Of a stretch of 64,000 nucleotides of DNA, positions 1,817 through 62,697 are shown piece by piece. A program made the position numbers and the translations under genes. The notes below the pieces were generated by a model. The model made no database searches, was not told where the DNA came from, and saw only the letters and a list, made by a program, of their open reading frames with translations. Position 1 is the first letter of the stretch, and each line of letters begins with the position of its first letter. This stretch comes from Eledone cirrhosa (taxonomy: Eukaryota), in contig OZ024750.1 of the NCBI GenBank assembly GCA_964016885.1, positions 44,082,001-44,146,000 of the forward strand, written 5' to 3'.

Positions 1817-1876
<60 letters not shown>

Positions 1877-2084
1877 GGGTATGACATTAAACTACATCCA
1901 GTGGCAAGGCTCCAGTTCGGGAGTTCAGGAGATGTGGGGAATGTGGAGTTACCCCTTAGTTGTCATGACTCCCAGGTCTGCCCTGGCCCGGGGTGGTAGT
2001 ACCTGTTAGGGCTCCATTTATGGGTTAAATAACTACCTTATTCGAGTGGCGCCGGTAAGGTATTGTCAGCCATTGAAAAGAAAT

Positions 2085-3569: not shown

Positions 3570-5178
3570 ACCATTTTAGGACCCTACTAGGAGAGCCACC
3601 CTCCACAGCCCAGAGCACTGGGGAGATCAGGCGGCTGTTTGGGGAACTGGATGTTGAGACAGAGCCCTTCACCAGAGAGGAGCTTCAGAGAGCCAAGAAG
3701 AAGATCAAGGAGGGCAAGGCTCATGGAGAAGATGGAGTGGCATCAGAGGTGATGAAGAGGTGTGATTTTGATGATATCATCCTGGGGTTCTGTAACGGGG
3801 CACTGGAGAAAGGAGTTGCCCCGAATCAGTGGAGGATCAGTAACATCGTCCCAGTGCCAAAGAAGGGAGATCTCTCTAACACCAACAACTACCGGGGGAT
3901 CTTACTGACGTCACTTGTGGCAAAGACCCTCAACAGGATGATTCTTAACAGGATCCAGCCTGAGATGGAGAAGAAGCTCAGGGACAACCAGAACGGCTTC
4001 AGAGAGGGTAGATCAACCACCAGTCACATCCTGATGCTGAGGAGGATATTAGAGGGAGCTAGAGCAAAGTGCCTTCCTGCGGTCATGGTTTTCATTGACT
4101 TTAGGAAGGCCTTTGATTCTGTGGACCGTTACTGCCTGATGAAGATCTTACAGGCTTATGGAATCCCCAAGAGGATAGTGGACCTGATATCACTGCTCTA
4201 CACCAACACCAAAGCCCAAGTCATTACACCTGATGGGAGAACAGAGTTCTTTGAGATACTGGCTGGAGTGCTCCAGGGAGATACATTGGCTCCCTACCTT
4301 TTTATCATCGTAGTGGACTATTGTATGCGCCTTGCACTGGAGAAACACCAGGACTCTGGCTTTACTGTAGCACCGGCTCAGAGCAGGAGAGTTGGGGTGA
4401 AAAAGGTATCGGATGCTGAATTTGCCGACGACATAGTTTTGGTGACAAATACAGTGAAGGTGGCAGAGGATTTGATGCGGGAGGTTGAGACTGTGTCGAT
4501 GAGTGTGGGGCTGAGAATGAATGAGACTAAAACAAAATATCTGGTAGAGAATGTTGAGAAGCCAGAGGGGATCACTAATATAGGCGGGAAGCCGCTGGAA
4601 TTGGTTGAGGACTTCCTGTATTTGGGAGCAAAGATTGGGAATACGGAAGTTGATGTGGTTGAAAGGAAGAGCAAGGCCTGGGCGGCGTGTCACAGCTTGG
4701 GATCGGTGTGGAAGTCGGACCTTCGTAGAGACCTGAAGGTCCGCCTCTTCATTGCTGTAGTGGAGTCTGTGCTGCTGTGTGGGTCTGAGACTTGGACACT
4801 GACCAAGAGACTCACTCAGATGGTGGATGGGTGCTACACGAGAATGCTGAGGATGGCTCTGAACATTAATCAGTATACACTGAGGATGAAAAACTCAGAG
4901 CTGTATGGGAGCATCCCAAAAGTCAGCTCAAAAGTGACACAGAGAAGACTGAGGTTGGCTGGTCATGCTCACCGACATCCAGAGTTGACATTGCACTCAG
5001 TGCTCCTTTGGGAGCCCCTACATGGACACACTAGAAGAGGAAGACCAAGGTTAACATATGTTGATGCCCTAAGGACAGACACTGGTCTGTTGGAGATGCA
5101 GGATATGGCAGCGATAATGAGGGACAGAGACCGCTGGAGAGAACTCGTCCATGGATCTCGGGAATTTTACCCGCCTTA

Positions 5179-5179
<1 letters not shown>
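3515..5179 (+). CDS. Reverse transcriptase half of RTE ORF
   Basis: Motifs [46 protein letters not shown] and FLYLG. RTE-type C-terminus GSETW...RGRP...DRDRWRELV. Confidence 0.92.
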
Positions 5180-5239
<60 letters not shown>

Positions 5240-5754: not shown

Positions 5755-8700
5755 AGGGATAAGGAGAGGGGAATTGAGGAAGGCGTATAGAGGAACAATT
5801 GACCTCAGTATTAGACTGGTACTATATATATAGAGAGAGAGAGATAGAGAGAGGGAGAGGAAATGAGGAAGGGGTATAGAGGAACAATTGACCTCAGTAT
5901 TAGACTGGTACTATATATATATATAGAGAGAGAGATATAGAGAGGGAGAGGAAATGAGGAAGGCGTATAGAGGAACAATTGACCTCAGTATTAGACTGGT
6001 ACTATATATATATATATAGAGAGAGAGAGATAGAGAGAGGGAGAGGAAATGAGGAAGAGGTATAGAGGAACAATTGACCTCAGTAGTAGACTGGTACTAT
6101 ATATATATATAGAGAGAGAGAGAGATAGAGAGAGGGAGAGGAAATGAGGAAGGCGTATAGAGGAACAATTGACCTCAGTATTAGACTGGTACTATATATA
6201 TATATATAGAGAGAGAGAGATAGAGAGAGGGAGAGGAAATGAGGAAGGGGTATAGAGGAACAATTGACCTCAGTATTAGACTGGTACTATATATATATAT
6301 AGAGAGAGAGATAGAGAGAGGGAGAGGAAATGAGGAAGGGGTATAGAGGAACAATTGACCTCAGTAGTAGACTGGTACTATATATATATAGAGAGAGAGA
6401 GATAGAGAGAGGGAGAGGAAATGAGGAAGGGGTATAGAGGAACAATTGACCTCAGTAGTAGACTGGTACTATATATATATAGAGAGAGAGAGATAGAGAG
6501 AGGGAGAGGAAATGAGGAAGGGGTATAGAGGAACAATTGACCTCAGTAGTAGACTGGTACTATATATATATAGAGAGAGAGAGATAGAGAGAGGGAGAGG
6601 AAATGAGGAAGGGGTATAGAGGAACAATTGACCTCAGTAGTAGACTGGTACTATATATATATAGAGAGAGAGATATAGAGAGGGAGAGGAAATGAGGAAG
6701 GGTATAGAGGAACAATTGACCTCAGTAGTAGACTGGTACTATATATATATAGAGAGAGAGATAGAGAGAGGGAGAGGAAATGAGGAAGGGTATAGAGGAA
6801 CAATTGACCTCAGTAGTAGACTGGTACTATATATATATAGAGAGAGAGATAGAGAGAGGGAGAGGAAATGAGGAAGGGGTATAGAGGAACAATTGACCTC
6901 AGTAGTAGACTGGTACTATATATATATAGAGAGAGAGATAGAGAGAGGGAGAGGAAATGAGGAAGGGGTATAGGGGAACAATTGACCTCAGTAGTAGACT
7001 GGTACTATATATATATAGAGAGAGAGATAGAGAGAGGGAGAGGAAATGAGGAAGGGGTATAGGGGAACAATTGACCTCAGTAGTAGACTGGTACTATATA
7101 TATATAGAGAGAGAGATAGAGAGAGGGAGAGGAAATGAGGAAGGGGTATAGGGGAACAATTGACCTCAGTAGTAGACTGGTACTATATATATATAGAGAG
7201 AGAGATAGAGAGAGGGAGAGGAAATGAGGAAGGGGTATAGAGGAACAATTGACCTCAGTAGTAGACTGGTACTATATATATATAGAGAGAGAGATAGAGA
7301 GAGGGAGAGGAAATGAGGAAGGGGTATAGGGGAACAATTGACCTCAGTAGTAGACTGGTACTATATATATATAGAGAGAGAGATAGAGAGAGGGAGAGGA
7401 AATGAGGAAGGGGTATAGAGGAACAATTGACCTCAGTAGTAGACTGGTACTATATATATATAGAGAGAGAGATAGAGAGAGGGAGAGGAAATGAGGAAGG
7501 GGTATAGGGGAACAATTGACCTCAGTAGTAGACTGGTACTATATATATATAGAGAGAGAGATAGAGAGAGGGAGAGGAAATGAGGAAGGGGTATAGGGGA
7601 ACAATTGACCTCAGTAGTAGACTGGTACTATATATATAGAGAGAGAGAGATAGAGAGAGGGAGAGGAAATGAGGAAGGGGTATAGGGGAACAATTGACCT
7701 CAGTAGTAGACTGGTACTATATATATATAGAGAGAGAGATAGAGAGAGGGAGAGGAAATGAGGAAGGGGTATAGAGGAACAATTGACCTCAGTAGTAGAC
7801 TGGTACTATATATATATAGAGAGAGAGATAGAGAGAGGGAGAGGAAATGAGGAAGGGGTATAGGGGAACAATTGACCTCAGTAGTAGACTGGTACTATAT
7901 ATATATAGAGAGAGAGATAGAGAGAGGGAGAGGAAATGAGGAAGGGGTATAGAGGAACAATTGACCTCAGTAGTAGACTGGTACTATATATATATAGAGA
8001 GAGAGATAGAGAGAGGGAGAGGAAATGAGGAAGGGGTATAGGGGAACAATTGACCTCAGTAGTAGACTGGTACTATATATATATAGAGAGAGAGATAGAG
8101 AGAGGGAGAGGAAATGAGGAAGGGGTATAGGGGAACAATTGACCTCAGTAGTAGACTGGTACTATATATATATATAGAGAGAGATAGAGAGAGGGAGAGG
8201 AAATGAGGAAGGGGTATAGAGGAACAATTGACCTCAGTAGTAGACTGGTACTATATATATATAGAGAGAGAGATAGAGAGAGGGAGAGGAAATGAGGAAG
8301 GGGTATAGGGGAACAATTGACCTCAGTAGTAGACTGGTACTATATATATATAGAGAGAGAGATAGAGAGAGGGAGAGGAAATGAGGAAGGGGTATAGGGG
8401 AACAATTGACCTCAGTAGTAGACTGGTACTATATATATATATAGAGAGAGATAGAGAGAGGGAGAGGAAATGAGGAAGGGGTATAGAGGAACAATTGACC
8501 TCAGTAGTAGACTGGTACTATATATATATAGAGAGAGAGATAGAGAGAGGGAGAGGAAATGAGGAAGGGGTATAGAGGAACAATTGACCTCAGTAGTAGA
8601 CTGGTACTATATATATATAGAGAGAGAGATAGAGAGAGGGAGAGGAAATGAGGAAGGGGTATAGAGGAACAATTGACCTCAGTAGTAGACTGGTACTATA

Positions 8701-10724
8701 TATATATAGAGAGAGAGATATAGAGAGGGAGAGGAAATGAGGAAGGGGTATAGAGGAACAATTGACCTCAGTAGTAGACTGGTACTATATATATATAGAG
8801 AGAGAGATAGAGAGAGGGAGAGGAAATGAGGAAGGGGTATAGAGGAACAATTGACCTCAGTAGTAGACTGGTACTATATATATAGAGAGAGAGAGATAGA
8901 GAGAGGGAGAGGAAATGAGGAAGGGGTATAGAGGAACAATTGACCTCAGTAGTAGACTGGTACTATATATATATAGAGAGAGAGATAGAGAGAGGGAGAG
9001 GAAATGAGGAAGGGGTATAGAGGAACAATTGACCTCAGTAGTAGACTGGTACTATATATATATAGAGAGAGAGATAGAGAGAGGGAGAGGAAATGAGGAA
9101 GGGGTATAGAGGAACAATTGACCTCAGTAGTAGACTGGTACTATATATATAGAGAGAGAGATAGAGAGAGGGAGAGGAAATGAGGAAGGGGTATAGGGGA
9201 ACAATTGACCTCAGTAGTAGACTGGTACTATATATATATAGAGAGGGAGATAGAGAGAGGGAGAGGAAATGAGGAAGGGGTATAGAGGAACAATTGACCT
9301 CAGTAGTAGACTGGTACTATATATATATATAGAGAGAGATAGAGAGAGGGAGAGGAAATGAGGAAGGGGTATAGAGGAACAATTGACCTCAGTAGTAGAC
9401 TGGTACTATATATATATAGAGAGAGAGATAGAGAGAGGGAGAGGAAATGAGGAAGGGGTATAGAGGAACAATTGACCTCAGTAGTAGACTGGTACTATAT
9501 ATATATAGAGAGAGAGATATAGAGAGGGAGAGGAAATGAGGAAGGGGTATAGAGGAACAATTGACCTCAGTAGTAGACTGGTACTATATATATATAGAGA
9601 GAGAGATAGAGAGAGGGAGAGGAAATGAGGAAGGGGTATAGAGGAACAATTGACCTCAGTAGTAGACTGGTACTATATATATAGAGAGAGAGAGATAGAG
9701 AGAGGGAGAGGAAATGAGGAAGGGGTATAGAGGAACAATTGACCTCAGTAGTAGACTGGTACTATATATATATAGAGAGAGAGATAGAGAGAGGGAGAGG
9801 AAATGAGGAAGGGGTATAGAGGAACAATTGACCTCAGTAGTAGACTGGTACTATATATATAGAGAGAGAGATAGAGAGAGGGAGAGGAAATGAGGAAGGG
9901 GTATAGAGGGAACAATTGACCTCAGTAGTAGACTGGTACTATATATATATAGAGAGAGAGATAGAGAGAGGGAGAGGAAATGAGGAAGGGGTATAGAGGA
10001 ACAATTGACCTCAGTAGTAGACTGGTACTATATATATATAGAGAGAGAGATAGAGAGAGGGAGAGGAAATGAGGAAGGGGTATAGAGGAACAATTGACCT
10101 CAGTAGTAGACTGGTACTATATATATATAGAGAGAGAGATAGAGAGAGGGAGAGGAAATGAGGAAGGGGTATAGGGGAACAATTGACCTCAGTAGTAGAC
10201 TGGTACTATATATATATAGAGAGAGAGATAGAGAGAGGGAGAGGAAATGAGGAAGGGGTATAGAGGAACAATTGACCTCAGTAGTAGACTGGTACTATAT
10301 ATATATAGAGAGAGAGATAGAGAGAGGGAGAGGAAATGAGGAAGGGGTATAGAGGAACAATTGACCTCAGTAGTAGACTGGTACTATATATATAGAGAGA
10401 GAGATAGAGAGAGGGAGAGGAAATGAGGAAGGGGTATAGAGGAACAATTGACCTCAGTAGTAGACTGGTACTATATATATATAGAGAGAGATAGAGAGAG
10501 GGAGAGGAAATGAGGAAGGGGTATAGAGGAACAATTGACGTCAGTAGTAGACTGGTACTATATATATATAGAGAGAGAGATAGAGAGAGGGAGAGGAAAT
10601 GAGGAAGGGGTATAGGGGAACAATTGACCTCAGTAGTAGACTGGTACTATATATATATAGAGAGAGAGATAGAGAGAGGGAGAGGAAATGAGGAAGGGGT
10701 ATAGGGGAACAATTGACCTCAGTA
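5755..10724. repeat. Tandem satellite with a unit of about 90 bp, roughly 55 copies
   Basis: Unit GAGGGAGAGGAAATGAGGAAGGGGTATAGAGGAACAATTGACCTCAGTAGTAGACTGGTAC(TA)n(GA)nTA(GA)n. Confidence 0.97.
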
Positions 10725-11385: not shown

Positions 11386-11564
11386 AACGAAGGAAATGTG
11401 GTAAGGAACAAGATGGACCATAACGCACCAAAGTACTCAATACTTAGGGTAGTAGAGTGGGTAATAGGAACGAGTAGGACCCCGACGGCTGAGCTCAAGC
11501 CGTTTGGACGGGCTAATTCTATCGAAACTGCTTGAGCTCAGCCATCGGGGTCCTACTCGTTCCT
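11386..11564 (+). mobile_element. Short (TA)n-embedded fold-back element, family B (copies at 21896-22090 reverse, 29741-29798 partial, 58389-58582)
   Basis: Shared AACGAA...GTAAGGAAC..GATGGACCATAAC...AGTACTCAATA head followed by a terminal hairpin of about 100 nt. Confidence 0.88.
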
Positions 11565-13552: not shown

Positions 13553-13962
13553 TCGGGAGAGATGACCCCTTAGCCTTTGTCAAGGCAGAATTCTAGAGAA
13601 GGAAAACTCTGATATAACACCTGCAACCCTGATGGTATCCAATGATGTTGACTTGTTCTTCTTTTTGGTAAATATCATCTTGGTTAAGAGAGTGGGACTG
13701 GCTTTGTGCAGTGCCTTTGCTCACTATAAAAGCTTCACGGCACAGGCATTGCTTTATATCTGGAGATCTCTCTGCATTTGTCGTCACATGGTACCATGGG
13801 CCCAGCACTATGTGTCAATAATTGTCACAAGTGTAGTGTTTGTACCAGAGCTTTCAAGTCGCTGGCTGGACTAAAAAGTCACACTCGTTCAGCGCATCAG
13901 TAGGGGTTCTCCTACATGGATATAAAGTAGTGGCCGTACTCGAAAACGAGTTGGCAGCCACC
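13553..13962 (+). mobile_element. RTE/BovB-like derived non-autonomous element with (TGTA)n tail
   Basis: 13832-13903 reads CSVCTRAFKSLAGLKSHTRSAHQ*, a C2H2 finger typical of BovB-like ORF ends. It is followed by a short 3' UTR with the hairpin ACTCGAAAACGAGT and then (TGTA)n. A second copy lies at 23035-23240. Confidence 0.72.
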
Positions 13963-14067
13963 ATGTATGTATGTATGTAATGTATGTATGTATGTATGTA
14001 TGTATGTATGTATATAGGTAAGTTTGTCTATTTGTATGTATGTATTTATGCATGTATGTACGTATGC

Positions 14068-14267
14068 NNNNNNNNNNNNNNNNNNNNNNNNNNNNNNNNN
14101 NNNNNNNNNNNNNNNNNNNNNNNNNNNNNNNNNNNNNNNNNNNNNNNNNNNNNNNNNNNNNNNNNNNNNNNNNNNNNNNNNNNNNNNNNNNNNNNNNNNN
14201 NNNNNNNNNNNNNNNNNNNNNNNNNNNNNNNNNNNNNNNNNNNNNNNNNNNNNNNNNNNNNNNNNNN
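14068..14267. other. Assembly gap (200 N)
   Basis: Run of n. Confidence 1.
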
Positions 14268-16046
14268 GAGGCGCAGACATGCGCCATTCCCGACAGATCC
14301 ATCCACGACAACCTCCACCTCATGCGATACATCGTAGAGTGGGTAGCTAGGGAACCTGGCACGGGTGGGTCCTTGATCAATTTAGATCAGTCGAAAGCTT
14401 TCGATAGGGTCGACCATCGTTACCTAGCGGCAGTCCTGAGGGCGGCTGGCTTTGGGCCCGTCTTCAGAGGCTGGATCGCTGCCATGCACAGCGACATCTG
14501 CTCTGTGGTGAGAGTGAACGGTCACCTGTCGGAACCGTTCAACATCATGCGCTCGGTCCGCCAAGGATGTCCCCTCTCGTCCCTCTTGTACGTATTGACG
14601 CTCGAGCCATTACTGCACAAACTGGAGACGTTGAGGGGAGTCCCGCGCGAACTAGGATGCGGAAGATCCGTGTCAGCATATGCGGACGATGTCACCGTAG
14701 TGGTGTCGAACGCCAAACACATCGAGGCGATCGGCACTACACTAAGAGAATACGAAGCGGTGACAGGAGCAATGATCAACCAGGAAAAGTCAGTGGGCCT
14801 GCAGCTCGGCACCTGGAGAGGCAGGTCCATGCCGTCCAACAGCGTTGTCGGGCGCTGGACGGACGGACCGGTTAAATTGCTAGGGGTCTGGTTCGGTCCG
14901 GACCTCCAGACGGACAAAAACTGGGACGAGGTGACGAGCAGGGTGGCTTCTCTCACCCAGAAATGGGCGGAGAGGAAGCTATCCCTGAAAGGTCGAGCGG
15001 AGGTGGCTAACGCGTACATCGCGTCTGTCATCTGCTACCGCCTAACCGTCGTACCTTGTCCTAAGCCTCGCCTGACTGCGCTGGAGCGTTTGCTCTTTCG
15101 CTTTTTGTGGAAGGGATGTGCTCCGATGGTCAGGCGGTCCATCTGTTGTCAACACCCGCTACGTGGAGGGCTGGGCATGCCGTGGCTGATGATGCGCAGG
15201 CACGCGCTCAGGCTACGACATCTCCACCTCTTCCTCGACGGTGATCAGGTGTGGTCGCCGTTTGCTAGACGAGTTTTTCCCCAGCTCGTTTCCTTGACGG
15301 AGCTGCAGTCCTGGGTCAAGCGAAGACCGAGAGGGAGCGCCTGGAGACTGGAATGTCTTCAGGCGCTCACAGCCCTCGACCAATCGGGCAATGTGATCGG
15401 TGGAAACTCCACCTCGGCGTTCTATAGAGGATTAGTGGAGGGGAAGAGCGACGACGTACTTGGGGAAACTCTAGGCGTCGACGAAAATCAACTAGCCAAT
15501 CTCTTCGGAAGAACTTTCGGACCAGGGCCTATGGACAACTTCCAGAAATCTCTGGCCTGGCAGTGCTACCGAGGAGCCTTGCCAGTTCGGGATAAACTCT
15601 ACAGGCATGGAGGTGCCGTCAGCCGGGCATGTCCGAGATGCGCGCAGGGCGACGAAACCGTCCTGCACGCACTCGTCCAGTGTCCGAAAATTGCTGATTT
15701 GTGGGTTTATGTCGAACACCTGCTGTCGCGTTTAGGACGGATCCAGCTATCATCTGAGTCTATCGTGAGGATTGCCCCGCCCTCCTCCTTTAGCCGGGAA
15801 GGGCAGGCAGTTTTTATCTGTCTGGTGGCCATGGCGAAAGAGATAGTATGGTGGACACGTTTGAAAGGGCTGAAGACGAGCACTTACCTCTTCGGTGATG
15901 CTCTGATTGACTTTTTCAAATTTCATTTGAAAAGGAAAATCAGAGTAGAGAAGGAAGTGCTCTCTTCCCAGCATTTTGTTGAAAGATGGATGAGAGAAGC
16001 AAGAATGGCCCGAGTGAATGGGCCGACTCTGAGTATATATCTGTAA
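14268..16046 (+). CDS. Tx1/L1-clade LINE ORF2, RT plus C-terminal CCHC; 5' part lost in the gap
   Basis: Motifs LDQSKAFDRV, VRQGCPLS, YADD, KLLGV and CPRC..ETVLHALVQC. The 3' UTR has AATAAA near 16296 and runs into (ATT)n. Confidence 0.93.
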   Translation, partial: EAQTCAIPDRSIHDNLHLMRYIVEWVAREPGTGGSLINLDQSKAFDRVDHRYLAAVLRAAGFGPVFRGWIAAMHSDICSVVRVNGHLSEPFNIMRSVRQGCPLSSLLYVLTLEPLLHKLETLRGVPRELGCGRSVSAYADDVTVVVSNAKHIEAIGTTLREYEAVTGAMINQEKSVGLQLGTWRGRSMPSNSVVGRWTDGPVKLLGVWFGPDLQTDKNWDEVTSRVASLTQKWAERKLSLKGRAEVANAYIASVICYRLTVVPCPKPRLTALERLLFRFLWKGCAPMVRRSICCQHPLRGGLGMPWLMMRRHALRLRHLHLFLDGDQVWSPFARRVFPQLVSLTELQSWVKRRPRGSAWRLECLQALTALDQSGNVIGGNSTSAFYRGLVEGKSDDVLGETLGVDENQLANLFGRTFGPGPMDNFQKSLAWQCYRGALPVRDKLYRHGGAVSRACPRCAQGDETVLHALVQCPKIADLWVYVEHLLSRLGRIQLSSESIVRIAPPSSFSREGQAVFICLVAMAKEIVWWTRLKGLKTSTYLFGDALIDFFKFHLKRKIRVEKEVLSSQHFVERWMREARMARVNGPTLSIYL

Positions 16047-16351: not shown

Positions 16352-16844
16352 GGGCGTGGATTGGCAGTATCGGTAGAGAGTCGGACACTATGCTTTGAAG
16401 CATAGAGTTACGTCCCTTTATGATCTGAGTTCAAATCCCGCCGAGGTTAACTTTGCCTTTCATCCTTACGGGGTCGATAAAATAAAGTACCAGTAATGTA
16501 CTGTGTAATTGCTGGCCTTGTGCCTAAAGTAGAAACAATTATTATTATTATTATTCGGTGGATAAGGATGCAATTCAACTTAAGCACTCGACGTCATATT
16601 CTACAAAATAGGGATTAGAATGAGGACGGACAAATAAAGCAAAAGCATCAGATTTTTTTTAATTCCTTCCCCCCACCCATAATTGCCTCGGAAACTTTAC
16701 CTTTCACTCAATTTTGCTGTCTGATGAGATCACGCAACTGATCGTCATTGAAATATGTGTAACGGCTCAATTAATAAAGGACTCTTTAACTTCTAAAACT
16801 TTGAATTTTCCTCACTTCCTCTCCTCCCTCTCTCTCTCTGTCTC

Positions 16845-16883
<39 letters not shown>

Positions 16884-18308
16884 GTATATATATGTATATA
16901 TATATATATAATTGAATAAACAAGAGAGATGAACACTAATATAAACATACATATGTCCGAATTAGTGTCCATCACTCTTGTTTATTCAATTACATTACAC
17001 GGCTCGGAAAAGTTTTTTTCTTAGAGCTATTTAATTGTAAGAGACTACTCTGAGTTTCTAAGTCACTATATATGTGTATATATATGGGTAGATTACACCA
17101 CAAATGTTATATATCATTAAACCTGAATCATATGGGATGTTACAAGATTTCTTACAAGATTTCTCATACATACCATATCAATAACCATTATGGCGGTGGA
17201 TTGGCAGTATTGGTAGAGTGTCGGATGCCATGCTTTGGCGCATAGAGTTACGGCCCTTGCCATTCTGAGTTCAAATCCCGCCGAGGTTAACTTTGCCTTT
17301 CATTCTTACGGGGTCGATAAAATAAAGTACCAGTAATGCACTGGGTAATTGCTGGCCTTGTGCCTAACGTAGAAACAATTATTGATATGGTATGTATGAG
17401 AAATCTTGTAAGAAATTTTGTAACATCGCATATGACTCAGGTTGAATGAAATATAACATTTGTGGTGTAATCTACCCTCGTAATTTTAGACATGGCTTTA
17501 CTGTGTTTACTTCTACACATATTAATATAATAATTGTTTCTACTTTTGGCACAAGGCCAGCAATTACCCAGTACATTACTGGTACTTTATTTTATCGACC
17601 CCGTGAGGATGAAAGGTAAAGTTAACCTTGACGGGATTTGAACTCAGATCCTAAAGAGACGTAACTATGCTAGAAAGCATGGCGTCCAACTCTCTACCGA
17701 TACTGCCAATTCACCGCCCTTAATATTATAATTGTTTCTACGTTAGGCACAAGGCCAGCAATTACCCAGTGCATTACTGGTACTTTAATATTATAATTGT
17801 TTCTACGTTAGGCACAAGGCCAGCAATTAACCAGTGCATTACTGGTACTTTATTTTATCGACCCTGTAAGGATGCAAGGCAAAGTTAACCTCGGCGGGGT
17901 TTGAACTCAGAATGGCAAGTGCCTTAACTCTATACGTCAAAGCATGGCGTCCAACCCTCTCCCAATACTGCCAATCCACCGCCAATGCTCAGTATTTATA
18001 CTTTGAGCTTGTTAATTGCCGGGTATCTATATGAGTTTGTAACTCTATATTTTATTTGTATGTATATATATGTATATTTAATATACATAAGCATATCGTG
18101 AATAGCTACTCGGAGTTATTCTTTGTGGATTGGCAGTATCGGTAGAGAGTCGGACTCCATGCTTTCCAGCATAGTTACGTCCATTTACGATCTGTGTTCA
18201 AATCCCGCCGAGGTTGACTTTGCCTTTCATCCTTATGGGGTCGATAAAATAAAGTACCAGTAATACACTGGGTAATTGCTGGCCTTGTGCCTAAAGTAGA
18301 AACAGTTA
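16352..18308. mobile_element. Cluster of tRNA-derived SINEs of about 190 bp: + at 16352-16540, 17192-17380 and 18125-18308; - at 17532-17720, 17730-17787 (partial) and 17794-17983
   Basis: Pol III A box TGGCAGTATCGG, B box GAGTTCAAATCC, body GCCTTTCATCCTTACGGGGTCGATAAAATAAAGTACCAG, and (ATT)n tail. Confidence 0.9.
16716..16766 (+). ncRNA. Type I hammerhead ribozyme motif
   Basis: Stem I GCUGU/ACGGC, core CUGAUGA, stem II GAUcACG/CGUcAUU, GAAA, short weak stem III, GUA site. AATAAA follows within about 10 nt. Confidence 0.65.
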
Positions 18309-21865: not shown

Positions 21866-21898
<33 letters not shown>

Positions 21899-22092
21899 AA
21901 AAAGTATGACCCCGACGGCAGAGCTCAAGCCGTTTCGACGGCATTTCTGGAGTCCAGAAATAGCCATCGAAACGGCTTGAGCTCTGCCATCGGGGTCATA
22001 CATTTTCCTATTACCCACTCTATTACACTAAGTATTGAGTACTCTGGTGCGTTATGGTCCATCTGGTTCCTTACCACAATTCCTTCGTTATA

Positions 22093-23034: not shown

Positions 23035-23240
23035 GGTGGCTGCCAACTCGTTTTCGAGTACGGCCACTACTTTATATCCATGTAGGAGAACTCTTACCGA
23101 TGCGCTGAACGAGTGTGACTTTTTAGTCCAGCCAGCGACTTGAAAACTCTGGTACAAACACTACACTTGTGACGATTATTGACACATAGTGCTGGGCCCT
23201 TGGTACCATGTGACGACAAGAGAGATCTCCAGATATAAAG
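23035..23240 (-). mobile_element. 3' fragment of the same RTE/BovB-like family as 13553-13962
   Basis: Reverse complement of about 13752-13962 with a (TACA)n tail on the left. Confidence 0.85.
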
Positions 23241-37976: not shown

Positions 37977-40900
37977 GTGCCTTTTCTCTTCACCACCAAC
38001 ATGGCTATGCTAAGAGTAGGCTGTTTAAATGCGCGTGGCCTGGGCTCAACTTGGAAGCAAGCAATGCTTCTAAATGACCTCAGGTCACAACGTATAGATG
38101 TGATGGTTATTTGCGAGGCCCGGATCAGCAACGTGCGACAGCTGGCCCCCACCTTTGATGACTTTGAGATGCACGCATCTCTCTGTCAGCCCGGAGGTGG
38201 GGGTGGAGTTGTCGTTCTGCTGCAAAAACATCTGGGTCTCGCAACACAGATGGTACATTTGGACCCGGAGGGTCGACTAGTGGTTCTGGACCTTGGCAGT
38301 GGTAAAGGCGGAGCGTTTAGGTTGGTAGCCGCCTACGGCCCTTTCGGGTCAATGCGGCCGGACTTCTTCCATCGTCTGGAGACTTTTCTGGGGACGTCCC
38401 GCTCCTTGCTATTAGTGGGGGACTGGAATGGTATCCTAGATGCACGCTGGGACTACGTAGGGGCCTGCCCCGATAGAGAGGGGTGTAATAGCCTCAAAGG
38501 GTTAATCGGTCGATTTGACCTGGCCGATAGATATCGACTAGATTTTCCGACTGCGCCAACCTGGACTTGGGCAAATCGTAGCGGATCATCTAGGTCGTAC
38601 CTAGATAGGTTCTTAGTTAGAATTAAGGATAAGGACTTTTTAAGTTGTCCAAAAATGCGCATGGTTGGCTATTCAGACCACAAATTAGTGACCTGCATGG
38701 TCAACCTTGACAGAACTCATAGACAGGGCCCCGGTTACTGGAAGCTCAACTTGTCCTTGCCGGCAAGTAGAGCCTACAGGAATCGGATTAGTACGTTAGT
38801 TAAGGAACGGTTGACTGGAGCGATCGTCAACAGCAGGTGGTGGGTATCTCTAAAGAGAGAGATTAGAGTAGTCTCGATAGAATTTAGTAAGGTTCTAGCT
38901 GCGGATAGGAATAGGAAGGAAAGGGAGCTAATAGATAGAGTAGAAGAGGCAATTAGAAGCGGCGACGTGGCCAGAGCGCTAGCGTCGAGAACGGCTTTGA
39001 GCCAGTTTTTCGACGCGAAGCACGAAGGCTGCGTTGTCCGAAGTAAAATACGTGCTCTAGGGAACGAGGGGACCAAAGCTGTTAGCTGGGCCCGCGTGAC
39101 AGAGGCCAACAGTGGAACTAAATCCACCATCCGGTCTTTGCGAGACCTGGATGGACGGGCGATTCTTGAGCCTAAGCAGATGTGTGAGGCCTTTCAAAGG
39201 CACTTTGCCCGACTGTTCGGGAGGGGCGGGGAGCCGGTTGGGAACGTGGACTTCGGTCCATACCTCGACGGCCTGCCGCGCCTCTCGGACAGGGAGGCGA
39301 AGTCCTGCGAGGAGCCGATTTCGGCCGCTGAGATAGAGGACGTGCTGAGCCAATGCGGCAAACGCAAATCCCCGGGTCTCGATGGTCTTCCTTACGAATT
39401 ATATCTAGCTATGCCGGACTTGTTCCCCGATCTCCTCGAGGCGGTCTACTGCAACTGGCAACAGAATGGGAGAATTCCCTGTACTGTGACCAAGGGCGTA
39501 GTCACGCTAGTGAGGAAGGACGAGAACAAGGGGGACGAAATAAGTAACTTCAGGCCCATAACTCTGCTAAATACAGAGTTACAGATTTTGGCCAAGGTGC
39601 TAGCAAAGAGGTTGGCGCTTGTCGTGGGCAACCTGGTGGGAGATGCGCAGACATGCGCTATCCCGTCCAGGTCCATCCATGACAACCTCCACCTCATGCG
39701 ATACATCATAGAGAGGGTTGGGAACGAACCCGGCTTTGGTGGGGCTCTGATCAACTTGGATCAATCTAAGGCGTTCGATAGGGTCGACCATGGTTACCTG
39801 GATGCGGTGCTAGCGGCGGCAGGCTTCGGACCCGTTTTCAGGGGCTGGATCACTGCTATGCACAGCAGCCGCATCTGCTCTAGGGTCAAGGTGAACGGCT
39901 ACCTCTCGGAGCCGTTCAAAATCGCGCGGTCCATCCGACAGGGGTGCCCTCTCTCCTCCCTTCTGTATGTGTTGACTCTCGAGCCACTACTGCGGAAGTT
40001 GGAGTTGTTGCAGGGCATCCCTTTGGAACCGGGATTGCGGAAAGCGGTGTCGGCCTACGCCGATGACGTGACAGTAATGGTGTCGACGGCCTCCGAAATC
40101 GAGGCGGTCGGCACCTTACTGAAGGAGTACGAAAAGTTCACAGGGGCTAAGCTGAACCGGGACAAGTCGATCGGTTTGCAACTCGGCACGTGGAGGGGCA
40201 GACCGATGCCCTCCGATGGCGTCGTCGGACGCTGGACGGAGGGCCCGGTGAAGTTGCTCGGGGTCTGGTTCGGACCGGACCTCCAGGTGGAGAAAAACTG
40301 GGCGGAGGTTACGAACAGGGTGTTTGCACTGACCAAGAAGTGGGCCAGTTGCAAACTATCCCTGAAAGGTCGGGCGGAGGTGGCGAACACCTACATAGCG
40401 TCCGTCATCTACTACCGCCTGACCGTAGTGCCCTGCCCAAGGGAAACCCTCACCAAGATGGAGCGCGCGCTCTTCCAATTCCTTTGGAAGAGGCGGGCTC
40501 CTATGGTGAGGAGATCCATCTGCTGTCAACACCCTTCGAAAGGAGGGCTGGGGATGCCGTGGCTAATGATGCGTAAACACGCATTAAGGCTACGGCACCT
40601 CTACGTATTCCTCACCGGACAACCGGTGTGGGCCTCGTTTGTGAGGCGAACCTTTCCCAGACTCGTCTCACTCACCGAGCTGCAATCCTGGGTCAAGCAA
40701 AGACCGAGAAAACTGGGCGCCTGGCACACTGAGTGTGCCCAGGCGCTCACCGCCCTCTGGCAGGCGGATCCGGTTATCAGTGGAGACTCCACCGCAACAT
40801 TCTATAGAGGGCTGGTACGCAGCAGGTGCGACGACGCCCTCGGAGAAGCCCTAGACATGGAGGAGGACGAACTGGCCAGCCTGTTCGGTAGGACATTCAG

Positions 40901-41438
40901 CCCGGGACCTATGGACAACTTCCAGAAGTCCCTGGCCTGGCAGTGCTACCGAGGGGCTTTACCCGTTCGAGAAAGGCTCTACAGACACGGGCGCCCGGGT
41001 AGGGACCCCGCCAAAAAGATCTGTCCCAGATGCGTGTGCGACGAGGAAACCGTTGCACACGCATTGGTACACTGCTCGGGCGTAGCCGATCTGTGGGGCT
41101 ATGTCGAACAACTGCTGTCAAGGGTGGAACCGATCCGGTTGACCACCGAGTCTATTGTAATGATCAAGCCGCCTCCCCCCTTCAAAGATGAAGCAGAGGC
41201 GGTGTTTCTGTGCGTAATAGCCATGGCGAAAGAGGTTGTATGGTGGACGCGTCTGAAAGGACTGAGGTCAGGCACCTTTCTCTCTGGCCAACAACTGGTC
41301 CGTTTCTTCCGATATCATTTCGGAAGAAGGATCAGGATGGAGAGAGAGGTGCTGCACCCCAGCCGTTTCTATGAAAGATGGGTGAAAGTGGCGAGAATGG
41401 CCCGTGTGAATGGGCCTTCACTCTACATCAGACTATAG
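37977..41438 (+). CDS. Tx1/L1-clade LINE ORF2, intact (APE endonuclease, RT, CCHC); first ATG at 38001
   Basis: Motifs GCLNARGL, ICEAR, VGDWN, YLDRF, YSDH, YWKLN, KSPGLDG, FRPITLLN, KAFDRV, RQGCPLS, YADD and CPRC..ETVAHALVHC. No stops over 1153 codons. Confidence 0.96.
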   Translation: MPFLFTTNMAMLRVGCLNARGLGSTWKQAMLLNDLRSQRIDVMVICEARISNVRQLAPTFDDFEMHASLCQPGGGGGVVVLLQKHLGLATQMVHLDPEGRLVVLDLGSGKGGAFRLVAAYGPFGSMRPDFFHRLETFLGTSRSLLLVGDWNGILDARWDYVGACPDREGCNSLKGLIGRFDLADRYRLDFPTAPTWTWANRSGSSRSYLDRFLVRIKDKDFLSCPKMRMVGYSDHKLVTCMVNLDRTHRQGPGYWKLNLSLPASRAYRNRISTLVKERLTGAIVNSRWWVSLKREIRVVSIEFSKVLAADRNRKERELIDRVEEAIRSGDVARALASRTALSQFFDAKHEGCVVRSKIRALGNEGTKAVSWARVTEANSGTKSTIRSLRDLDGRAILEPKQMCEAFQRHFARLFGRGGEPVGNVDFGPYLDGLPRLSDREAKSCEEPISAAEIEDVLSQCGKRKSPGLDGLPYELYLAMPDLFPDLLEAVYCNWQQNGRIPCTVTKGVVTLVRKDENKGDEISNFRPITLLNTELQILAKVLAKRLALVVGNLVGDAQTCAIPSRSIHDNLHLMRYIIERVGNEPGFGGALINLDQSKAFDRVDHGYLDAVLAAAGFGPVFRGWITAMHSSRICSRVKVNGYLSEPFKIARSIRQGCPLSSLLYVLTLEPLLRKLELLQGIPLEPGLRKAVSAYADDVTVMVSTASEIEAVGTLLKEYEKFTGAKLNRDKSIGLQLGTWRGRPMPSDGVVGRWTEGPVKLLGVWFGPDLQVEKNWAEVTNRVFALTKKWASCKLSLKGRAEVANTYIASVIYYRLTVVPCPRETLTKMERALFQFLWKRRAPMVRRSICCQHPSKGGLGMPWLMMRKHALRLRHLYVFLTGQPVWASFVRRTFPRLVSLTELQSWVKQRPRKLGAWHTECAQALTALWQADPVISGDSTATFYRGLVRSRCDDALGEALDMEEDELASLFGRTFSPGPMDNFQKSLAWQCYRGALPVRERLYRHGRPGRDPAKKICPRCVCDEETVAHALVHCSGVADLWGYVEQLLSRVEPIRLTTESIVMIKPPPPFKDEAEAVFLCVIAMAKEVVWWTRLKGLRSGTFLSGQQLVRFFRYHFGRRIRMEREVLHPSRFYERWVKVARMARVNGPSLYIRL

Positions 41439-44655: not shown

Positions 44656-44820
44656 CGTTTCTGAATTTGTTTAGCAAGATTCTTTATCTGAAATCGTGTG
44701 TTGAAACCGATATTGTTATTGGCAACATGAGCCTCCCAAAGTATAACAGTATATATATTTATATATATATATATTTATATATATATATATATATATAGAT
44801 ATGTGTATGTGTGTGTGAGT

Positions 44821-44995
44821 CCCGGGTTCAATCGGGCGCAACCACAGTAAGCTTTCCTGATGATTTCCTTCAAAAGAAAGAATTCCAGTCCTGAAGAAGC
44901 CATTTCTACATTAAATTATATGTAGAAGTAGTAACACAACAGTTAGTTCACTATACCGAGAAGAAATATTTCCCCTTTCGGAGCTTCAGCTCGGT
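44821..44995. ncRNA. Two decayed hammerhead-like motifs (+ at about 44852-44900, - at 44955-44995)
   Basis: The first is a worn relative of the 29666 family, with CUGAUGA at 44857. The second reads ACCGAG-CUGAAGC-UCC gaaa GGG-GAAA uauuu CUU-CUCGGU. Confidence 0.45.
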
Positions 44996-45219: not shown

Positions 45220-45297
45220 AAAAAGGAGAATTAAGAAGTGTGTCTAAGCTTTTAAAAAATGCAATGAGAATACAGCTTACCTATAAATCAACTTATT

Positions 45298-45459
<162 letters not shown>

Positions 45460-45471
45460 AGCATATATATG

Positions 45472-45505
<34 letters not shown>

Positions 45506-45535
45506 TGTGTATATATATGTGAATATATATGTATA

Positions 45536-45592
<57 letters not shown>

Positions 45593-45624
45593 AGAACAAA
45601 AGAGGGCTAAGAGAGTTCCATGTA

Positions 45625-45691
45625 TTTTATTATGCGCATTTCAAAAACAAACATCATCATGCAATAATATTTGTGTTTTCATCAGATAAAA
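45625..45691 (-). ncRNA. Hammerhead ribozyme motif with intact core, in element 45591-45750
   Basis: Minus strand UUUUAU-CUGAUGA-AAACACAAAUA...UGUUUGUUUUU-GAAAU gcgc AUA-AUAAAA. Confidence 0.82.
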
Positions 45692-45747
45692 CAGGAAGAC
45701 ATGATATGAAGGTTAAAAACACTTGTTGATAGTGCAGTTTTAAATCA

Positions 45748-45802
<55 letters not shown>

Positions 45803-53920: not shown

Positions 53921-53982
<62 letters not shown>

Positions 53983-54022
53983 TATATATAAGAACAAAAG
54001 ATGGTTAGAGGAGTTCCATGTA

Positions 54023-54089
54023 TTTTATTATGCGCATTTCAAAAACAAATATCATCATGCAATAATATTTGTGTTTTCATCAGATAAAA
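54023..54089 (-). ncRNA. Hammerhead ribozyme motif with intact core, in element 53989-54149 (sister of 45625-45691)
   Basis: Same fold. A G-U pair in stem II of the other copy is A-U here. Confidence 0.82.
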
Positions 54090-54535
54090 CAGGAGGACAT
54101 GATATGAAGGCTAAAAAACACTTGTGGATAGTTCAGTTTTAAATCAACATATATATAAGTATATATATATTGCACACGGTACCATAACAGAACTGTTTCA
54201 TCATTCATTTGTTCTCATTCTGAGGCAGTTTTGAATGGCGCAAGTTGGTAATTTTAACTCGGGAATTTAATATTCTCCGAGAGAGAAAAGCCTTCTGACG
54301 ATGATCTCTTTTTCAATAGAAATTCACTTGGATTATCTATTTTTTGCTGATTTTTTGCTGATCTGAAACCTCGGTTTGCATATGTTTGCATATCGAAGAC
54401 TTCTCCTTTCGTTTACCTTTCATCCTTATGGGGTCGATGAAATAAAATAGCAGTAATACACTGGGATAATTGGTGGCCTTGCACCAAATGTAGAAACAAT
54501 TTATATATACATATATATGTATATATTTATACATG

Positions 54536-55155: not shown

Positions 55156-57182
55156 CAAGACAATTCTAAAAGAATATAAAGCGACCGTCTAGCTACACGC
55201 GGCAGAGAAATGTCACAGCGTATTTAGGGCAGTGAACCAGTGGTGTCTGGGGGACGAGCTGCTAGAAAGGGCAGCCCAAAACCATTCAGAGAAGTGTGCT
55301 CAACCAAACAGAGAGAGAGGAAAGACTGTTATAAGGAGTGAAATATCACAGCGAATAGACTCTCGTTATTCCCTGTCAATAATATGCTCAAAGGAGAAGG
55401 AATCCTGAGCTCTTTAAAATACAATATGTTGAAAAGGTAACACACTAGAGAGAGAGTGTGCCATCAATAAAACAGGGAAAACCACCAGTGAATGGAATCT
55501 ATACTCTATGGAAAGCAGGGTAGACACACAATAATTAAAAATATAAATTAAAATGTATATAGGCACCTCTATAACTATATAACACACGCGTACACATCCA
55601 AAGAGATCTGGGGTGTCGTTGATATAGGTTGTACCTAGCTTACTAGTCCAAAGGCACAGTAGCAATTGTAGCAAAAGCTAAGGAGACAGATAAAGGAAAC
55701 ATCAGCGCTCGTCAGTAAGAAAGTGAGATTAATGTGCTGGTGAGTTGTTATCAATCAGCTGGATGTTGTGTGGGAAAACTTACATATCTTAGAATCCTCT
55801 TTCTTATGAATCTGTTAATTAAATAAGATATGTTAGAGTATAATTAGATAGCAATGTTCCCCAAATAAAGAAATCTGTTTTGAGAACATAAATAAAGATG
55901 AATATTTTAGTTGATTCCAATGTGTTGGTAGAGTAAAGACTACATTAAATATACTACTAAAAATGATAGCAGAATCAAATGTCCTCATCACAGATATTTT
56001 GGACAAGCTAGAGGCTAACAGGAACAAAATAAGAAAGCAAATATGATTTTGACTGTGTTATACGTAAGCAAAATTAGGTTCGTGAGAAATTAGAGGGGTT
56101 CTCCTGACTGGAAAAAATAAAATAAATGTGAACAATAAAAGTCAGTTTTCAGAAGGGGAAAAGAGCAACCCCCCCCCCCCCCCAAAAAAAAAACAGAAAG
56201 AAAACAACACCATACAAAACAATAAGTCAAAATGTTCGAAGCTTTCAGCACTGTCATCAAGCAGAATAAGATGAAAATATCTATAAAACATGCTGCATGC
56301 ACTTAAGGAATTTGTCGCTAGAAGCGTCTTTCTTTCGTTGTAAGAATCCTGGTTGGATAGAGAAAAATGTTGATTATCCAATCAAATTCTTTGATGTCAT
56401 TTGACGGCCACAAAACATGGATGACACGTAACTTAGGGCAAAGAGATAGCAAGATTGGTGATAATCTCTATATTTGTTCAGCTAATGACGGTGATAAGAT
56501 AGCTGGTTCCATTTGTTATGATATTTATTTTACATTTTAAAGTAGACCTAACAACAGGCACCAGAGAACATTGCCTAAGGTACTAGCAAGTCAACGCTGA
56601 TTCCAACAGAACATTTGTTTTTTTGTTGTTAATTTTTTGAGTTCGCCATTTTTTTCTTCTTCTCTTGCTTATAACTATGATGGCTCTAGATATCTATGTT
56701 AAATAATATAAGTGAAACCGAAGAAAATTAGATATAATCTATTAGTTGTCATACTAGCAGCTATACGATTTCAGTGACAATCATGAAAATAATGAATAAC
56801 AAATAAACGGTTATGCTAATTCTAGCTTGTTATAAAGCGTTGTCTTCCAGTTGATTAGTGTATAGCAGGTTTTTAATAACTCTTTGATTCGAAGTAGGTA
56901 ACTGATAGAAAAAAACAAACAAATAAACAAAAACGCAAACAAAAATTAAACAAAAACAAAAAGCAATATGGCTGATAATTAATATTTTTCTAGACTAATC
57001 TGACTAAAAGCGTATGACAGCATCTTTATAATAACGCGTGTGAATATTGTTTCGTACGAGTTACAGCCTCTATAGTGAAGAAGAAAAATATTAAATAAAA
57101 TATAATTTAACAAAAAATAAACACAACATGAAACAACTAATTACATGTTGGCAATTTATTCTCTCTCGTGATTATTACTGGT

Positions 57183-58345: not shown

Positions 58346-58579
58346 CAATTATATATATATATATATACACACACATATATATATATATAACGAACGAAGT
58401 TTTGTAAGGAACGAGATGGACCATAACCGACCAGAGTACTCAATATTTAGAGTAGTAGAGTGGGTAATAGGAATAATGTTTGACCCCGACGGCAGAACTC
58501 AAGCCGTCTCGACGGCTATTTCTGGACTGAAATAGCCCTCGAAACAGCTTGAGGTCTGCCGTCGGGGTCAAACATTTTT

Positions 58580-58680
<101 letters not shown>

Positions 58681-60527: not shown

Positions 60528-60605
60528 CACAAGTACAAACCCAAAGAGATTTGTTTCGCCAAGAGTTAGTGAACGCAATGAATCACCCAGGTTCATCAGC
60601 GTGTG
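60528..60605 (-). ncRNA. Hammerhead motif with intact core and long stem II
   Basis: Minus strand CACACG-CUGAUGA-aCCuGG..GUGA..UCAC..CUuGGc-GAAACAAA...UUUGUA-CUUGUG. Confidence 0.7.
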
Positions 60606-60806
60606 GTAAGTGAATACATTCCAGACAATTCCAAGAGAACTTAAGATAAATGCCTTGCAACACATGGTAGAGAGAAGGTAATGTGTGCAAGCGGCACTAA
60701 ACCAGTGGCCTGGGGGGGGTGGGGGGGTTAGAAATCGCAGCCCCAAACAACTCAAATAAGGCTGCTCTACTAAAGAGAGAGAGCGAGAGAGAGAGAGAGA
60801 GAGAGA

Positions 60807-61199: not shown

Positions 61200-61466
61200 C
61201 TAAACTCTATGCCACAAAGCATATTCTCCGACGCCCAAATGATTGTCCCAATCCATCGCCCTTAATAATAATAATAATTGTTTCTACTTTAGGCACAAGG
61301 CCAGCAAATTATCCAGTACATTACTGGTACTTTATTTCATCGACCCCGTAAGGATGAAAGGCAAATTTAACCTCGGCGGGATTTGAACTCAGAATGGCAA
61401 GGGCCGTAACTCTATACGTCAAAGCATAGCGTCCGACCCTCTACCGATACTGCCAATCCACCGCCC

Positions 61467-61534
<68 letters not shown>

Positions 61535-62697
61535 TAATTGCTCTGCCTTTAGCACAAGGTCAGCAATTTGCAAGAAAGGGGAAATTGGTATTTTATCGTC
61601 CCGGCTGGAATGAAAGGTAAAGTTGTTCTCGGCGAGATTTGATGCCCAAATCTAACGAGACGAAAGAAATACCGCAAAGCATGTTGTCCGACGCTCTACC
61701 GATCCAGCTTCCTTCTATGGCTTCTAATAATGGTTTCTGATTTAGGCACAAGGCCAGCAATTTGAAGAGAAGTTGATTAAATAGATAAAAGGCAAAGCAA
61801 ACATTGATGGCATATGAACTCAGTGAATTACTGGTACTTTATTTTATCGGTACCGTAAGGATGAAAGGTAAAGTTAACCTCGGCGGGATTTGAACTTAGA
61901 CCATAAAAGGCCGTAACTCTATGCTGCAAAGCATGGTGTCCGACCCTCTACCGATACTGCTAATCCACCGGCCTTTACAACCCTCATAATAATAAAATCA
62001 TCATAGAATAATAATTGTTTCTACTTTAGGCAAAAGGTCATCAAATTACCCAGTTCATTACTGGTACTTTATTTTATCGACCCCGTAAGGATGAAAGGCA
62101 AAGTCAACCTCGGCGGGATTTAAACTCAGATCGTAAAGGGACGTAACTATGCTGGAAAGCATGGCGTCCGACCCTCCACCGATACTGCCAATTCACCGCC
62201 CTTTATCATAGAATAATAATAATAACAATAATTGTTTCTACTTTTGGCACAAGGCCAGCAATTATTCCAGTGTATTACTGGTACTTTGTTTTATCGACCC
62301 CGTAAGGATGAAAAACAAAGTTAATCTCGGCGGGATTTGAACTTACAATGTCAAGGGCTGTAACTCTTTGCTTGCAAAGCATGGCGTCCGACACTCTATC
62401 GATACCGCCAATCCACCGCCCTAAAATGAAGGTCTTTCGAGCTTGCCAGGAGTCGAACCTGGAATCTCCTGATCCGTAGTCAGGCGCGTTATCCATAATG
62501 ATAGTATCAATTGTAATAATTGTTTCTACTTTTAGCACAAGGCCAGCAATTACCCCAGTGTATTACTGGTACTTTATTTTATCGACCCTGTAAGGATGAA
62601 AGGCAAAGTTAACCTCCGCGGGATTTGAACTCAGATCATAAAGGGCCGTAACTCTATGCTGAAATGCATGGCGTCCGACCCTCTACCGATACAGACA
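61200..62697 (-). mobile_element. Same-orientation cluster of about seven tRNA-derived SINE copies or fragments
   Basis: Repeated ACTGGTACTTTATTTTATCGACCCCGTAAGGATGAAAGGCAAAGTTAACCTCGGCGGGATTTGAACTC separated by (AAT)n. Confidence 0.9.
62438..62496 (-). pseudogene. 5'-truncated tRNA-Arg(ACG)
   Basis: Minus strand ATGGATAACGCGCCTGACTACGGATCAGGAGATTCCAGGTTCGACTCCTGGCAAGCTCG. Anticodon arm CCTGA/TCAGG with ACG and T arm CCAGG/CCTGG are present; about the first 14 nt are absent. Confidence 0.88.

Follow-up and report, generated by a model that had tools for sequence, protein, structure and literature searches.

A short hammerhead-bearing element in TA tracts of the Eledone cirrhosa genome and its probable link to Penelope-like elements

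Results

Repeat content of the locus

The sequence analysed here (the window) is a 64,000-nucleotide stretch of Eledone cirrhosa DNA (GenBank assembly GCA_964016885.1, contig OZ024750.1, positions 44,082,001 to 44,146,000 of the forward strand), 46% of which is simple repeat. Three plus-strand regions encode LINE-type reverse transcriptases (RTs), two of them together with an AP-endonuclease domain. The first (1872–5182) is flanked on both sides by TA repeats and uses two overlapping frames to encode its endonuclease and RT. The second lies at 14022–16046, and the third (37977–41438), an uninterrupted frame of 1153 codons, is 72% identical to it in DNA sequence; the best named relative of this RT (37977–41435) is from Argonauta hians (66%), and the top match reaches 76%. 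Neither an open reading frame (ORF) of the Penelope-like element (PLE) type nor a GIY-YIG domain was found in 136 translated stretches of the window, with 72 of 192 short frames left out.

Two minisatellites occupy 5766–10724 (89-bp unit, about 55 copies, 97% identity) and 32352–34633 (21-bp unit, about 108 copies). An abundant SINE-like repeat of about 186 bp at 16352–16537, which may resemble octopus SINEs, has more than 12 relatives (e.g., 17196–17377, 61279–61466 and 62016–62201), and a 172-bp tandem form of it is present at 25903–26406. A 203-bp repeat occurs at 13760–13962 and 23035–23232 with 95% identity; its frame 13730–13900 matches a C2H2 zinc finger weakly, short of the curated cut-off (E 9e-5).

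Two copies of a short element inserted in TA tracts

On the minus strand, the window contains two copies of a short element. Copy A (45593–45749) is 157 nt long, non-coding and devoid of terminal inverted repeats, with 31% GC (30–31% across the two copies); copy B (53991–54148) spans 158 nt. The copies align end to end at 93.2% identity and are separated by 10 difference events, comprising seven substitutions and three one-base indels. Searches by blastn, by nhmmer --max and with a covariance model built from both copies put the size of the family in the window at two: the model scored 111 bits for each copy, and its next match, at 26 bits, was a microsatellite. No tandem copies are present in the window, and no exact 31-nt match to the element was found in bacterial and archaeal genomes. 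Once TA repeats are stripped, the first and last bases are the same in copies A and B. An earlier reading made from the sequence alone (the sequence-only reading) had correctly matched the two copies, with ends at 45591–45750 and 53989–54149; the true ends lie 1–2 nt further inside.

That both copies adjoin TA tracts, as this reading had also noted, was confirmed in two of two cases. The tract that served as the insertion target of copy A meets its 3′ end (45294–45592), and a further tract (45750–45799), preceded by two extra bases, lies at its 5′ end. Copy B is bracketed by a 19-mer in which AG interrupts a TA repeat; it is identical on the left (53972–53990) and right (54149–54167), the non-TA interruption included. 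Among 1,978 left–right pairings of TA tracts in the window, six matched: the true pair, two trivial pairings within one tract, and three arising by chance. We read the 19-mer as a target-site duplication of copy B; at the flanks of copy A, no such duplication is recognisable. Beyond the element ends, the flanks of the two copies have only microsatellite in common, and copies A and B are thus separate insertions. The island to the left of the copy A TA tract (45284–45293) ends in the same nine bases as the right end of the element, possibly by chance or as the trace of an older relative.

Two other ways of accounting for the pair were rejected. The copies are not terminal repeats of a single 8.4-kb element, as the interval consists of microsatellites and short islands with no domain matches and copy B has a target duplication of its own. 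Derivation from a MITE or a Tc1-mariner element is contradicted by the termini, where 3–4 of 20 bases match, and by a duplication of 19 bp rather than the 2-bp TA.

Further families reside in TA tracts of the window. One family, of about 190 bp, bears a long GC-rich hairpin at one of its ends and is found at 11387–11563, 21897–22088, 58390–58581 and 29742–29801; three of its copies have both ends in common and one is truncated. A 93-bp family with fixed ends lies at 1630–1723, 44656–44749 and 29817–29972, and about 62 additional bases lie inside one copy, which makes the short form resemble a product of internal deletion. At 971–1585, two copies of one element end face each other across a short TA tract, producing a long inverted repeat.

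Each copy carries a type I hammerhead motif

As judged from its sequence, each copy contains a genuine type I hammerhead motif with a predicted cleavage site, not a new kind of ribozyme. Core bases are designated by the hammerhead position numbering. Along the minus strand the order is stem I, CUGAUGA, stem II, GAAA and AUA, and the motif covers 45623–45693 in copy A and, with the same anatomy, 54021–54091 in copy B. Stem I has eight pairs (45693–45686 with 45630–45623; seven A-U and one G-U), not the six previously assigned to it, and may be extended by four more (45697–45694 with 45619–45616) beyond a 3-nt bulge. The core box CUGAUGA, C3–A9 (45685–45679), is intact in both copies. It is followed by a long stem II (45643–45678; 36 nt) in which 15 of 16 positions are paired below a 4-nt loop; its base consists of an A-U pair at 10.1–11.1 and two further A-U pairs, with a C·U mismatch at position 4. 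The stem II hairpin has z-scores of −3.2 (copy A) and −4.4 (copy B). G12–A14 and then an 8-nt palindrome representing stem III occupy 45632–45642 (palindrome 45639–45632), and the GAAA of the core lies at 45642–45639 in copy A. Cleavage is predicted after AUA, between 45631 and 45630 in copy A, 38 nt from the 3′ end of the element, and between 54029 and 54028 in copy B. With H17 at 45631 (54029 in copy B), the core thus agrees with the minus-strand site proposed before.

The core bases C3–A9, G12–A14, A15.1–U16.1 and H17 are complete in both copies, and the core is flanked by an open stem I and a closed stem II, as in type I. Stem III, with at most two pairs in the monomer, lacks intramolecular stability. 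The usual, though not obligatory, G10.1–C11.1 pair is replaced by A-U in both copies. The core had been called fully canonical, which is true of its unpaired bases and not of the 10.1–11.1 pair. Nor is the element “little more than a hammerhead”: the motif takes up 67–71 of 157 nt (43–45%), less than half of its length. Since the terminal loop of stem II sits 16 positions from the core, we infer that this stem is too long for the usual contact between loop 1 and loop 2; the C·U mismatch at position 4 and the stem I bulge might substitute for that tertiary contact. Three features depart from the fast canonical type, namely the A-U pair at 10.1–11.1, the distant stem II loop and the palindromic stem III. 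What the present analysis adds to the earlier reading is the 19-bp duplication, the palindromic stem III with its dimer design, and the Penelope context.

Other hammerheads are found nearby. A 232-bp minus-strand island that ends at a TA tract (29221–29452) bears a textbook minimal motif of PLE type, with C3 at 29369, a palindromic 6-nt stem III and a cleavage site predicted at 120 nt from the 3′ end. A second hammerhead family has a stem III of four pairs. It includes 29583–29715 (minus strand), a short TA-flanked island in which the PLE-type motif at 29710 is intact; a related head-to-head inverted pair at 30000–30184, an arrangement typical of PLE insertions; and a decayed plus-strand copy at 44818–44900 (44857).

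The motif is not a product of chance, and its excess conservation is weak

A structure descriptor found four motifs in the window (those of copies A and B and those at 29710 and 29369), compared with a mean of 0.01 per dinucleotide shuffle (300 shuffles of 33,985 unmasked bases). When the element itself was shuffled, any match appeared in 4 of 100,000 sequences. These near-zero counts indicate that the motif is real and exclude chance. In Rfam, no family, including those of tRNA type, reached its gathering score anywhere in the window. A scan by E-value returned 511 matches, and among the 150 listed, nearly all were microsatellites matched to miRNA models. Even with the threshold relaxed to E 10, none of the Rfam hammerhead models matches the element, a silence that is uninformative because the textbook motifs at 29369 and 29710 were missed as well. 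Searched alone, it gave weak Rfam matches, mostly to C/D snoRNA models (best E 0.51), which were rejected because they depend on the word UGAUGA.

The same data bear on the possibility that the pair reflects a local duplication or assembly artefact of a dead remnant, or that the hammerhead is a chance look-alike. Only two copies are seen in the window, 8.4 kb apart on one strand, and the lack of an Rfam hammerhead match would suit such an origin were it not shared by the 29369 and 29710 motifs. The 10 difference events and unrelated flanks, the target duplication belonging to copy B alone and the near-absence of the motif from shuffled sequence all speak against it, and we regard this explanation as extremely unlikely.

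One of the 10 differences between the copies falls within the 67-nt motif and nine in the remaining 90 nt (Fisher p 0.028). In 23% of random placements, at most one difference falls in some 67-nt window; the Fisher figure is the fairer of the two because the motif was defined by structure, and it still rests on n = 2 sequences. The sole change inside the 67-nt motif, at 45652, converts a U-G pair of stem II to U-A, so that pairing is indeed preserved, as had been claimed; among 29 pairs, none has changed on both sides and one has changed on one side, and no compensatory change is seen. Outside the 67 nt, copy B loses the outermost pair of the stem I extension through the change at 45697. The differences are therefore mostly outside the motif, as the earlier reading had it, and the apparent excess of conservation, from two sequences, is weak. 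If the excess is real, the copies would stem from different source lineages in which the ribozyme had been under selection.

Folding favours a dimeric hammerhead

Folding energies were calculated without hammerhead tertiary energy and served solely to rank motifs. In the predicted minimum for the whole element, the 5′ arm of stem I (45692–45688) pairs with 45679–45675, which comprises A9 and the base of stem II, and the core box is hidden. Pair probabilities for stem I are 0.08–0.17 in whole copy A and about 0.01 in whole copy B, and they rise to 0.45–0.87 in three of four trimmed constructs. The palindrome has a pairing probability of at most 0.001 in the monomer; with a second copy, it forms a self-duplex of −10.5 kcal/mol.

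Forced into its active form, the monomer lies 5.9–7.1 kcal/mol above the free ensemble for copy A and 5.7–9.2 kcal/mol for copy B. For the motif at 29369 the corresponding cost is 6.4–7.2 kcal/mol, and for that at 29710, which has a true stem III of four pairs, 4.0–6.9 kcal/mol. The model thus points to the 29710 motif as the best monomer candidate in the window, and the element does not keep the place it had been given as the foremost candidate for an active ribozyme. A double hammerhead costs 3.2–3.9 kcal/mol in trimmed tandems and 5.1–5.8 kcal/mol in whole elements. These modelled costs speak for a dimer mechanism. Cleavage by isolated copies would probably be poor: for the monomer, efficient cleavage appears improbable, and for the dimer we would give even odds to detectable cleavage. 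In the measurements of PMC1636495, an AUA site was the slowest of four triplets on purified RNA and ranked second of four during transcription.

A LINE-dependent SINE would fit the ends and not the interior

LINE-type insertion is compatible with target duplications of variable length and with TA ends, and the window holds three LINE RTs, one of them TA-flanked. The element could then be a SINE-like passenger of an AP-endonuclease LINE, comparable to schistosome Sm-alpha, in which the hammerhead frees units from read-through transcripts. Its duplication and TA ends are in keeping with this idea. The interior of the element is not: Pol III box patterns identified no box A on the hammerhead strand with up to one mismatch, four T runs of at least four bases would stop Pol III, and no tRNA-type match reaches the Rfam gathering threshold. 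The 3′ ends of the three LINEs are also dissimilar to the element (best E 0.42). A Pol III SINE and the sharing of a LINE tail were rejected on these grounds, and we consider a LINE passenger very unlikely. Like the element, Sm-alpha is a short repeated retroelement with a type I hammerhead (PMC6765202); unlike Sm-alpha, the element has no Pol III promoter boxes, contains internal T runs and is not tandem.

Discussion

Resemblance to the ends of Penelope-like elements

The features of the element that are most readily compared with known systems are those of PLE ends. Metazoan PLE hammerheads are described as type I, with a short palindromic stem III, mostly solitary and acting as dimers; in a tested example, the monomer did not cleave and the dimer cleaved at a low level (PMC4209133). 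According to the text and tables of PMC8557442, the Hydra and Naiad clades insert into TA microsatellites, with a TA preference in 26 of 27 families in the Hydra-clade table, and the listed Hydra-clade hammerheads are almost all on the sense strand and close to the 3′ end. There, the cleavage site lies 30–355 nt from the 3′ end: 10 of 24 entries have a distance of 30–50 nt, and the value for the octopus family is 36 nt; the count leaves out one entry with a 5′ position only and one antisense duplicate. The element likewise has a sense-strand type I hammerhead with a palindromic stem III 38 nt from its 3′ end, lies in TA tracts and is solitary.

It differs from Hydra-clade PLE ends in having no ORF and in the fixity of both ends. 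Its stem II of 16 positions is also longer than the approximately 3–8 bp of the listed Hydra-clade motifs and the 7–8 bp of schistosome PLE motifs (PMC4209133). The extra base after A9 and the G10.1–C11.1 pair, said in PMC4209133 to be conserved in PLE hammerheads, are both missing here. In the Hydra clade, 10.1–11.1 is often not G-C, with U·U and G·U on record and an A-U combined with a long stem II in PLE-X1_sTam (PMC8557442). A search with three exact motifs of 11–13 nt from the element gave no matches in the supplement of Naiad, Chlamys and Hydra consensus sequences (PMC8557442), and by eye, neither the octopus Hydra family nor any of the three octopus Naiads has a 3′ end that looks related to the element. 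The idea of a Naiad half-core, in which the core halves lie 35–50 nt apart as they do here, was set aside because the octopus Naiad 3′ ends look unrelated by eye; this comparison covered three octopus Naiads, together with the start of Naiad_Esco. The searches revealed neither a parent nor a homologue, and assignment to any named family is therefore unproven.

Based on these comparisons, we propose, at a probability of roughly 60%, that a TA-targeting PLE gave rise to the element through its 3′ terminal repeat (pLTR), so that this short, non-autonomous retroelement would be a solo pLTR or dispersed monomeric retrozyme. With no linked ORF for RT and GIY-YIG in the 136 frames scanned, it is not an autonomous PLE, and its sequence suggests that it would work like a PLE end or a monomeric retrozyme. 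A type I hammerhead on the sense strand, close to the 3′ end and with a palindromic stem III, is what a PLE terminal repeat should have; the partial tandem or inverted arrangement and variable 5′ truncation of such repeats are not seen here, where both copies are solitary and have one common 5′ end (n = 2). PMC3846280 reports solo pLTRs, target duplications of 8–10 bp and host DNA captured between pLTRs; in the account of bioRxiv 10.64898/2026.07.22.740005, animal retrozymes, monomers among them, derive from pLTRs. A supplement to PMC13282606 attributes 6.83% of the Octopus vulgaris genome to PLEs. The textbook PLE-type hammerheads in other TA-flanked islands of the window, one of them in a head-to-head inverted pair, are also in keeping with the proposal.

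The common 5′ end is what separates this proposal from ordinary truncation, in which the copies would be 5′-truncated ends of a full-length coding PLE and their shared start a preferred stop of reverse transcription. PLE insertions are for the most part 5′-truncated with the hammerhead end retained (PMC8557442, PMC4209133), and the 38-nt distance to the 3′ end fits. Yet copies A and B begin at the same base, no coding remnant was found upstream of either, and other TA-targeting families in the window are fixed-ended too (three of four copies of the 190-bp hairpin family and three of three of the 93-bp family). We rate plain truncation as an unlikely origin.

Resemblance to retrozymes and other dimer-dependent hammerheads

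Non-LTR retrozymes are described in PMC7229834 as units of 150–450 bp with GC below 50%, target duplications above 4 bp, tandem arrays and self-paired circles. The element could be a monomeric offspring of such a classical retrozyme, whose tandem array is transcribed, cut into units, circularised and reverse-transcribed. Its 157 nt, low GC and duplication of more than 4 bp match the published description, the fraction of monomers ranges from 0 to 1 across retrozyme families (bioRxiv 10.64898/2026.07.22.740005), and a dimer-type hammerhead suits tandem transcripts. However, the window holds no tandem copy, the circularised unit shows no high degree of self-pairing (z 0.08 and −1.04; 52–58% paired), and the element ends differ from the cleavage site. 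Nor would we expect a circular template to yield, twice, the same permutation of exactly one unit. We judge this route distinctly unlikely, while noting that it and plain truncation are close variants of the same PLE-linked picture.

More generally, the element shares with animal non-LTR retrozymes a non-coding sequence, size range, low GC, a type I hammerhead, a 19-bp duplication (in one of two copies) and a probable PLE partner; unlike them, it is not tandem in the window, its circular fold is not unusually stable, and it lacks the canonical 4-bp stem II with loop contacts. Weak stem III and a palindrome that is fully paired in the double hammerhead recall the hammerheads of newt and axolotl satellites and of Aedes repeats. 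Those dimer-dependent motifs sit in tandem satellites (PMC7229834; PMC3088659, Fig. S8 legend), unlike the element, and axolotl HHR_Amex1 keeps its loop 1–loop 2 contacts. Among predicted frog retrozyme dimers, one of nine cleaved in vitro (bioRxiv 10.64898/2026.07.22.740005). The sCYDV-RPV (+) hammerhead (PMC1636495) is a natural example of an AUA site combined with a long, interrupted helix II; unlike the element, this hammerhead belongs to a viral satellite RNA of unrelated origin, its helix III has 6 bp and its helix I is looped.

Proposed mechanism

For the preferred origin from a PLE terminal repeat, a plausible mechanism can be outlined. First, a PLE located elsewhere would supply the reverse transcriptase and GIY-YIG nickase; a TA tract would be nicked, and the transcript of the unit would be copied in trans from its 3′ end by target-primed reverse transcription. 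Staggered nicks would then give rise to the target duplication. In this proposal the donor would already be a short unit rather than a randomly truncating full element, and the ends would stay fixed for that reason. The TA-flanked LINE at 1872–5182, with its intact-looking RT, is an alternative mobiliser. The hammerhead would be inherited from the parent PLE. Two copies could join via the 8-nt palindrome and exchange stem I strands, and the resulting double hammerhead would cut tandem or read-through transcripts, with a single genomic copy being mostly inactive.

A bolder and very improbable reading is that of a fixed-ended, dispersed “hammerhead SINE” with its ribozyme under selection despite its copies never being arranged in tandem, in which pairs of copies on the same strand cut and free the RNA between them. 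If this were so, distant copies, here 8.4 kb apart, would meet in one transcript via the 8-nt palindrome, and the released host RNA would bear 5′-OH and cyclic-phosphate ends, ready for circularisation or PLE-driven transduction. The long stem II with its C·U mismatch would then be a new way to make, or to forgo, the contact between stems I and II.

Significance

Since invertebrate genomes are known to hold many hammerheads, both at PLE ends and in retrozymes, the finding is an expected one. The element is a further example of this known class; its stem II is unusual, and its target duplication is clean. The duplication is seen within a TA tract, where such duplications are usually indiscernible according to PMC8557442. 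Returning to the pLTR origin, a compact, fixed-ended unit is the intermediate kind predicted by the model that retrozymes come from pLTRs, and its short length makes it an easy construct for monomer-versus-dimer assays. No prior description of the element family was found in the literature searched, which is weak evidence of novelty as most subscription journals and the repeat databases fall outside that scope. The words hammerhead and ribozyme are absent from the main text of the two cephalopod repeat papers searched, and PLE-type hammerheads appear to be little studied in cephalopods.

Two less regular motifs also occur in the window. On the plus strand, 16709–16776 carries a hammerhead-like motif with a stem I of five pairs, a stem II of five pairs with a 3′ insertion and a short stem III; this motif is single-copy, and its covariance-model match is weak (19.5 bits). 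On the minus strand, 60530–60612, kin to 55474–55610, belongs to a repeat family flanked by GA tracts and contains a degenerate hammerhead-like motif in which stems II and III are both long.
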